This document shows positions 63,484 to 63,857 of a DNA stretch of 64,000 nucleotides, one piece after another (positions within the stretch are counted from its first letter, which is position 1; the number at the start of each line of letters is the position of its first letter). The DNA is taken from positions 597 to 64,596 of the forward strand of contig JBNJDP010000002.1 of the NCBI GenBank assembly GCA_051744985.1, given 5' to 3'. The notes beneath the pieces were generated by a model, which was given only the letters and a program-made list of their open reading frames with translations, had not been told where the DNA came from and did not search any database. The translations under genes and the position numbers were made by a program. This DNA is from Chlamydiota bacterium. GTDB taxonomy: Bacteria; Chlamydiota; Chlamydiia; Chlamydiales; JABHNK01.

Positions 63484-63510
63484 ATGGTTTTCGCCTTCAA
63501 CTTTAGGTTC

Positions 63511-63567
63511 TTCTTAGGTGCTGATACCTTTCTTGTACGTCGTTAGCTGCTGCGGACCAGCGTAAAC
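63511..63567 (-). repeat. Two adjacent degenerate CRISPR-repeat-like relics
   Basis: On the minus strand, 63567-63540 reads GTTTACGCTGGTCCGCAGCAGCTAACGA; the blocks GTT.AC, CTG, CCGCA and GCAGCT are retained, with indels. 63538-63511 reads GTACAAGAAAGGTATCAGCACCTAAGAA; only the ends GT.CA and CT.AGAA are retained. The second is weak. Confidence 0.4.
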
Positions 63568-63569
63568 TA

Positions 63570-63830
63570 TTATTTTGGATCGGATTCATTTTCATTCTCC
63601 TTTTGTTTGTTTTTTAAAAATTCCCAGTTTTCAATATAGTGGTCATAACAGACCTTTCTAAATTCCTTAAAAGTTTTGTTTAGCAAAGTGCTTTTTTTCC
63701 TAGCCCTTCTGCCAATACTCTTATTCTTTGTTTTTTTGATGAAATATAAGTCTTCTAGGAAGTCATTAGTTTCACTTTCTACACGCTCAATAATTTTTAA
63801 TAAAGCTTCAAATTCTTTAGTATTTTCCAT
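63570..63830 (-). CDS. Small Hc1-domain (histone H1-like) DNA-binding protein, embedded between CRISPR repeats
   Basis: 86 aa with an RBS (aagagga) 8 nt upstream. KKTKNKSIGRRARKKSTLLNKTFKEFRKV matches the (K)GNKAAG.RARK.S..L.K..KE(F/Y)RK core of chlamydial Hc1 and Bacteroidetes 'histone H1'. The segment is visibly more AT-rich than its flanks. Confidence 0.55.
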   Translation of the reverse strand: MENTKEFEALLKIIERVESETNDFLEDLYFIKKTKNKSIGRRARKKSTLLNKTFKEFRKVCYDHYIENWEFLKNKQKENENESDPK

Positions 63831-63857
63831 AGTTTTTGTCCTCTTTTATTTTTGTAA

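Follow-up and report, generated by a model that had tools for sequence, protein, structure and literature searches.

A predicted Hc1-domain gene enclosed by two intact repeats at the trailer end of a Chlamydiota type I-F CRISPR array

[quoted passage not shown] In this array a 374-bp segment with one small open reading frame (ORF), named ORF86, takes the place of a spacer and is enclosed by two complete repeats, R' and R''. The layout is real and unusual and is found in a single genome, and the link of ORF86 to CRISPR function is purely hypothetical. We tentatively favour the explanation that a foreign cassette entered the terminal repeat of the array by recombination and duplicated this repeat, and that it now forms the last array unit and is probably transcribed as such. 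Our best reading is that ORF86 is a cargo profiting from the transcription of the array, not an established CRISPR component. The coordinates of all features are collected in Table 1.

Four copies of the canonical I-F repeat GTTCACTGCCGTACAGGCAGCTTAGAAA lie on the minus strand within the final 550 bases of the window, three of them full and one cut. The full copies match GTTCACTGCCGYACAGGCAGCTTAGRAA, for which no match is expected by chance, and score 46.6-50.1 bits on that strand with the Rfam model CRISPR-DR4 (gathering score 35). The repeats are 28 nt long, follow the I-F consensus and contain the Cas6f hairpin; I-F strains of Pectobacterium atrosepticum and Pseudomonas aeruginosa possess almost the same repeats. 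This is a true type I-F array on the chromosome of the Chlamydiota MAG, seen at its trailer end. The two inner intervals of 32 and 33 nt have the normal spacer size, and the last interval of 374 nt is the exception. The original prediction had placed a 374-bp AT-rich segment between near-identical repeats at 63858-63885 and 63456-63483; both repeats were confirmed, and the G+C content of the segment is 31.8% vs 41.1% for the whole window.

In the CRISPR RNAs (crRNAs) of type I-F systems the hairpin comes first and the 8-nt handle follows it, as established by the biochemistry of Cas6f/Csy4. The 8-nt I-F handle CUUAGAAA is described in bioRxiv 10.1101/2024.01.05.574328. Because the orientation of I-F crRNAs is known, the leader is to be sought beyond base 64000 and the window holds the trailer, or leader-distal, end. 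No Cas-model match was obtained among the 47 large ORFs of the window; the cas genes and the leader are outside it.

In the last two repeats, R' and R'', position 12 in the hairpin loop is changed from T to C, and R'' additionally carries an A-to-G change at position 26. The hairpins of both fold, and the two are mutual closest relatives. Terminal repeats usually decay toward the 3' end (review PMC8047081), and the pattern seen here, with the outermost repeat altered near its 3' end, fits this usual decay. Arrays in viral contigs have the GCACA loop variant of R' and R'' as their normal repeat. A search of the window with up to 10 mismatches allowed gave no further degenerate repeat, and no protospacers for the spacers at 63947-63978 and 63886-63918 were found in viral contigs. 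The first of these spacers holds, on the minus strand, GTGCAGGCAGC, which is complementary at 10 of 11 positions to the stem-loop of the flanking repeats (inverted repeats I14 and I15) and could allow pairing with the repeat hairpins.

Table 1. Features at the array's trailer end and in its surroundings (positions in the window).
Feature	Position	Strand	Evidence or remark
Cut type I-F repeat	63979..64000	-	CRISPR-DR4 model positions 7-28, 34.2 bits; repeat family D2; array continues leaderward past 64000
Spacer, 32 nt	63947..63978	-	sequence
Canonical I-F repeat GTTCACTGCCGTACAGGCAGCTTAGAAA	63919..63946	-	CRISPR-DR4, 50.1 bits
Last normal spacer, 33 nt	63886..63918	-	sequence
Repeat R', loop GCACA, hairpin intact	63858..63885	-	predicted Cas6f cut 63866/63865, which would give the handle CUUAGAAA
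Insert in place of spacer, 374 bp, foreign composition	63484..63857	-	G+C 31.8%
Shine-Dalgarno sequence AGAGGA	63839..63844	-	positions 14-19 after repeat R'
ORF86, 86 amino acids, distant stand-alone Hc1-domain protein (predicted), predicted two-helix hairpin	63570..63830	-	ORF, profile and model
Stretch between ORF86 stop and R'', 86 nt	63484..63569	-	45% G+C; no terminator, no special fold
Outlying repeat R'', loop variant of R' plus A-to-G at position 26, hairpin intact	63456..63483	-	46.6 bits; predicted Cas6f cut 63464/63463
Trailer, first 13 nt	63443..63455	-	10/13 identical to the 13 nt after R' (63845-63857)
yidC terminator hairpin	63264-63305		inverted repeat I4
yidC, chlamydial type, convergent with array	60759..63245	+	NCBIfam PRK01001, 944 bits vs cutoff 670

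R' and R'' make up a direct repeat that continues for 13 nt downstream of the CRISPR repeat (TTACAAAAATAAA vs TTATACAGATAAA, 10/13), which makes a total of 41 nt at 90% identity; an agreement of 10/13 is matched by only 0.18% of the AT-rich 13-mers in the window. As the direct repeat runs 13 nt beyond the CRISPR repeat, it argues against a simple duplication of the repeat by Cas1-Cas2. The size of I-F spacers is set by a 32-nt ruler. A giant spacer acquired via Cas1-Cas2/3 is disfavoured, because the duplication exceeds the repeat by 13 nt and 374 bp stand against the 32-nt ruler. Tandem duplication of a repeat-plus-gene unit was rejected, since the similarity between insert and trailer ends at about 17 nt. 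Leader-like DNA is also disfavoured as a description of the insert, in which no consensus site of the integration host factor (IHF) is present with one mismatch allowed.

Neither terminal inverted repeats nor a second substantial ORF were found in the insert, and an assignment to a transposon, an insertion sequence or a prophage is not borne out: ORF86 is its sole substantial ORF, and the flanking duplication measures 28-41 nt. Searches for related DNA in phage, plasmid, viral and metagenome collections returned only short AT-rich matches at chance level, which for phages and plasmids lie at gene starts. In fold stability the RNA of the unit does not exceed shuffled sequences (z = -0.18), and nothing in it is unusual besides the two Cas6f hairpins. 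The crRNA strand shows neither a consensus promoter ahead of ORF86 nor a terminator within the insert. A 30-codon ORF (MKMNPIQNNSLRWSAAANDVQERYQHLRRT, 63503-63595, minus strand) lies in another frame, overlaps the end of ORF86 and takes up the greater part of the GC-richer stretch before R''. It has AAGGAG 7 nt ahead of its second ATG, but this ORF may well be due to chance.

ORF86 is the longest ORF of the insert. The original prediction of an ORF at 63570-63830, co-directional with the crRNA, starting 27 nt after the repeat and provided with its own ribosome-binding site (RBS), held in all points: AGAGGA (63844-63839) stands 8 nt ahead of the ATG, which is preceded in frame by a TAA 15 nt upstream. 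The NCBI annotation contains the identical protein of 86 amino acids as MGM0439633.1 (locus tag ACQEP8_00780; Chlamydiota bacterium MAG, 75.1-kb contig). The G+C content of ORF86 is 28.4% vs 42.0 ± 2.5% in 47 neighbouring genes, a value not reached by any of 1516 coding windows of 261 nt. In collections of 5.8 billion clustered proteins and 1.84 billion representatives, ORF86 matches only itself. It has no relative in the viral contigs and no match among solved structures, and searches of NCBIfam and PADLOC with it gave nothing meaningful. Four other phmmer matches, all of them long repetitive proteins to which Pfam assigns dozens of spurious domains, were dismissed; a match of phrog_31787 (E = 0.005) was dropped, as genuine Hc1 proteins match no PHROG. 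ORF86 is probably a real and horizontally acquired gene; the share of shuffles of the insert that reach its length by chance (1.3%) also speaks for a gene.

The protein passes the Pfam model of the Hc1 family (PF07432) narrowly, with 26.1 bits at a cutoff of 23.5 and E = 7.9e-6; this profile search had been asked for together with the original prediction. The match places amino acids 14-60 on profile positions 4-50 of 57. In profile-profile comparison with hhalign, a set of stand-alone "histone H1" proteins of about 58 amino acids (30 proteins from Bacteroidota and Balneolaceae) aligns over the whole domain (amino acids 7-61, E = 2e-4), and 40 chlamydial Hc1 proteins align over 28 columns with E = 0.046. 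Among all ORFs of the window ORF86 is the top match to a hidden Markov model (HMM) of chlamydial Hc1. A MAFFT alignment with the stand-alone proteins is gapless, with 24-38% identity, and retains the turn motif NK..G.R.RK. Where the Hc1 turn has G-N-K-A-A-x-x-R-x-R, ORF86 has K-N-K-S-I-G-R-R-A-R: N36, K37, R42, R44 and R58 are kept, and G35 is replaced by K. With AlphaFold2 on the alignment of stand-alone Hc1 proteins, ORF86 is modelled with confidence as a two-helix hairpin (helices 3-34 and 37-82; mean predicted local distance difference test, pLDDT, 87.7) with the motif at the turn. The neighbours of this model in PDB and BFVD are generic helical hairpins, none of which matches with E <= 0.001.

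ORF86 shares with Hc1/HctA and with the Bacteroidota stand-alone "histone H1" (PF07432) the N-terminal two-helix domain and the turn motif. Unlike them it carries a 25-amino-acid acidic C-terminal extension, lacks the Lys/Ala-rich tail that all 40 chlamydial homologues possess (40/40), and is far from chlamydial HctA. By charge, its N-terminal third is acidic, its centre very basic (13 K/R in amino acids 31-60) and its C-terminal tail acidic again. The Lys/Ala-rich C-terminal region is given as the DNA-binding part of HctA in PMC3469542, which cites Pedersen 1996. By profile scores ORF86 also lacks a close similarity to the N-terminal domain of HctA, which is characterised by MALKDT... and the invariant Q33, V35, T37, E52 and S53. 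The core had originally been compared with that of HctA; the domain homology and its register stand, whereas the match to HctA itself is weak and its tail is absent. On these profile comparisons we assign ORF86 to the Hc1 domain family, as a distant stand-alone member and not as a histone of the chlamydial HctA type.

A quite different possibility is that there is no functional gene in the insert, which would then be AT-rich non-coding filler, decayed sequence or an old insertion scar, with the ORF and its Hc1 match being fortuitous or a dead remnant. It would agree with the G+C content of ORF86 (28%), which does not even reach the 35% averaged by intergenic DNA, and with the dinucleotide shuffles of the insert, 67 of 5000 of which (1.3%) produce an ORF of at least 86 codons. 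The Pfam score is just 2.6 bits over the threshold, the predicted helical hairpin is generic and lacks any significant neighbour in structure, and there is no homologue for a test of selection. We nevertheless consider it unlikely: the RBS is at the correct distance, three independent profile tests agree on the register, the alignment is gapless across the whole domain, and no other ORF of the window matches Hc1 as well.

The missing promoter consensus and the relation of R' to R'' bear on a further explanation, in which two CRISPR elements adjoin each other. The main array would stop at 63858, R'' would be a collapsed second array or a stray repeat, and ORF86 would be an inter-array gene with its own non-consensus promoter. 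I-F loci often have several arrays, and arrays may collapse to one terminal repeat (PMC8047081); the 13 nt after R' and R'' are alike, as expected of homologous trailers; and two viral contigs with the same repeat, L021 and L006, have repeat clusters 1-4 kb apart with small ORFs. Against this, the insert contains no IHF consensus site, and the 86 nt adjoining R'' have 45% G+C, unlike an AT-rich leader. Moreover, the search for a promoter consensus for ORF86 was negative, and R' and R'' are closest to each other. We regard this explanation as doubtful.

The two viral contigs deserve a description of their own. In L021 (IMGVR_UViG_3300033748_000014, 1170-2851) three degenerate I-F repeats are followed after 1159 nt by a six-repeat array with the GCACA loop, and the gap holds three co-directional orphan small ORFs of 64, 47 and 76 amino acids with no Pfam or PHROG match. 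In L006 (IMGVR_UViG_3300045918_000450, 1651-6006) a four-repeat array, the terminal repeat of which has the handle variant TTATAAA, is preceded 4.1 kb upstream by a solitary repeat with the TTATAAA variant too; phage genes stand between the solitary repeat and the array. None of the small orphan ORFs enclosed by the repeat clusters of these contigs is related to ORF86.

As the contig is MAG-derived and CRISPR repeats commonly confuse assemblers, we also considered a false join via the 28-nt repeats. However, neither of the repeats at the junctions is identical to the other or to the inner repeats, and their flanks occur only once. The final k-mers used by assemblers are usually longer than 28 nt, which leaves the repeat below their length. 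An assembly artefact is therefore extremely improbable in our judgement.

In the favoured explanation, with a foreign cassette recombined into the terminal repeat, the events would proceed as follows.

Step 1: The 374-bp segment would have arrived by horizontal transfer.

Step 2: Recombination at the terminal repeat would have left the repeat and about 13 nt on either side of the segment.

Step 3: ORF86 would be transcribed passively as the last unit of the pre-crRNA. With its own promoter not recognisable, ORF86 is most likely transcribed together with the pre-crRNA.

Step 4: The cuts of Cas6f in R' and R'' would release an RNA of 402 nt (63865 to 63464). This predicted RNA would begin with a normal 8-nt crRNA 5' handle, carry the RBS at +14-19 and the AUG at +28-30, and end with the Cas6f-bound 3' hairpin.

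Several points weigh against this explanation or parts of it. The layout is known from a single MAG contig with no close relative. The activity of the CRISPR system is not demonstrable from the window, since the leader and the cas genes are beyond view. Even in an active system the distal end of the array may be weakly transcribed, and a non-consensus promoter may reside in the last spacer or repeat. Past the 13-nt extension, longer or gapped alignments are not significant, and the extension is merely suggestive. The hallmarks of a mobile element are absent, as there is no integrase, no terminal inverted repeat and no kin among phages, plasmids or viral contigs. The match to Hc1 is marginal, and our own HMM of the chlamydial Hc1 N-terminal domain gives only 9.2 bits.

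A gene followed by a same-strand repeat also recalls an anti-CRISPR cassette from a mobile element. ORF86 would then be an anti-CRISPR (Acr) protein and the following repeat an RNA anti-CRISPR (Racr), captured via repeat homology and transcribed by the host array. On mobile elements, solitary repeats are found clustered with acr genes, and a I-C repeat 11 nt after acrIC5 shares one bicistronic RNA with it (PMC10651486). R'' lies 374 bp from the next repeat, beyond the 100 bp of the distance rule for solitary repeat units in the same work, and ORF86 is small, orphan and compositionally foreign, like many Acr proteins. Against this, the neighbours are core chlamydial genes outside any mobile-element context, neither the defence and anti-defence models nor informative PHROGs gave a match, and no aca-type helix-turn-helix gene is present. 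In addition, selection should disfavour an array that inhibits its own system, and the predicted RNA has a normal 5' handle, unlike RacrIF1. We find such an origin decidedly unlikely.

The position of the translation signals raises the question of a toxin or guard gene repressed in cis, similar to CreTA/CrePA. The mRNA of ORF86 would be a giant crRNA, and the Csy complex on its 5' handle would hide the RBS and the AUG, both of which fall inside the 32 nt covered by the complex after the handle. Such a natural mRNA would be excised by Cas6f, and Cas8f-Cas5f-Cas7f bound to the handle would block its translation unless Csy is missing or blocked; we hold this to be highly improbable. Just as improbable is its extension, in which the giant-crRNA mRNA would act as a translational Cas-sensing switch in cis, that is, to guard the CRISPR locus or make the cell addicted to it, or else as a sink for Cas7f. 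I-F loci do keep CRISPR-repressed protein toxins (bioRxiv 10.1101/2024.01.05.574328), and HctA is lethal in Escherichia coli, with its translation controlled by a small RNA (PMC3469542). But ORF86 has no DNA-condensing tail of HctA, its toxicity is purely hypothetical, and there is a single instance of the locus. Neither a CreA-like mini-array nor a target flanked by a protospacer-adjacent motif was found in the window: CC-preceded matches to the two spacers and to the sequences after the two distal repeats are absent, as are degenerate extra repeats. Overall, the chances that ORF86 is a guard gene of this kind appear very small.

The array adjoins core genes of the chlamydial chromosome (63456-64000, in the context of 51827-63245). 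The neighbours encode a CT351-family outer-membrane protein, FolD, HolA, MreD and YidC, and 210 bp separate the end of yidC from R''. The only relative obtained among GTDB genomes has a YidC with 56% identity and possesses neither the repeats nor synteny; no relative of YidC was found in the metagenomes of the Joint Genome Institute (JGI), and the repeat-insert junction pattern was found neither in metagenomes nor in viral contigs. Read on the crRNA strand, the 13-20 nt after R' and those after R'' each look like the 3' end of yidC in inverted orientation. Two pairs of arms are involved, 63242-63263/63426-63447 (22 nt, 82% complementary, with the exact 12-nt core ATAAAGAGCTTC) and 63227-63240/63844-63857 (14 nt, 93% complementary); they could mark the edge of a CRISPR island or reflect chance in AT-rich DNA. 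PADLOC matches among the 47 large ORFs of the window (mad3, 2e-22; PDC-M72A, 3e-12; mad8, 4e-7; AbiLi, 9e-6) may be housekeeping homologues and not defence genes.

The sole chlamydial CRISPR system that we found in the literature is of type I-E, from Protochlamydia naegleriophila (PMC5010888), and the present locus would add type I-F to the very few known in chlamydiae. If ORF86 is indeed transcribed and excised with the pre-crRNA, CRISPR RNA processing would for the first time be seen to yield a natural message that codes for a protein, and the trailer end of an array would be able to gain cargo through repeat-mediated recombination. If the insert is a mere insertion scar, it documents the uptake of non-spacer DNA by arrays and warns array callers against dropping outlying repeats.

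The arrangement had been put forward in the original prediction as undescribed, which holds in part. In the literature searched we found no report of a coding gene that has an intact array repeat of the same orientation on either side and its translation signals within the footprint of the would-be spacer. Related arrangements, on the other hand, have been published: insertions into arrays, solitary repeats beside small genes and repeat-linked toxins of I-F systems are already described.

The predicted processing of the ORF86 message comes close to a design of synthetic biology. Engineered sites of Csy4/Cas6f reportedly cut mRNAs from longer transcripts (work of Qi and colleagues from 2012). 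As there, Cas6f hairpins on both sides of a coding sequence would allow its release as a defined mRNA; the engineered sites, however, are a laboratory design, whereas excision at the present locus is inferred. We know of no natural example of an mRNA excised by Cas6f.

The solitary repeat units and RNA anti-CRISPRs (RacrIF1; acrIC5-racrIC1; PMC10651486) resemble the locus in that a small orphan gene is followed by a single same-strand repeat, a predicted target of Cas6f. They differ in being located on phages or plasmids, in having their own promoter and in the absence of an upstream array repeat. Here the unit is chromosomal and stands directly after the array, R'' has no mobile-element context and no promoter consensus, and the predicted RNA would carry a normal 5' handle. 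CreTA/CrePA (bioRxiv 10.1101/2024.01.05.574328) likewise ties a small captured gene to repeat-like sequences of a I-F system. However, CrePA is located between cas3 and csy1, it consists of a degenerate repeat, a pseudo-spacer of about 30 nt and a second repeat, and its guide matches a CC-flanked site in the toxin promoter. The present locus has none of these features, and any control would be exerted in cis and on translation.

Last but not least, prophages that integrate into CRISPR repeats have been described, namely PhiAP1.1 of Streptococcus pyogenes (bioRxiv 10.1101/2020.10.09.333658). There too, foreign DNA resides in the array, in most cases at the degenerate terminal repeat, with repeat sequence on both sides owing to recombination with a repeat-like site. 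PhiAP1.1 is a whole prophage of about 40 kb with an integrase, which uses an 8-bp identity core in a type II-A array. In contrast, the insert described here measures 374 bp, holds a single small gene, lacks an integrase and stands in a type I-F array between complete repeats on both sides.

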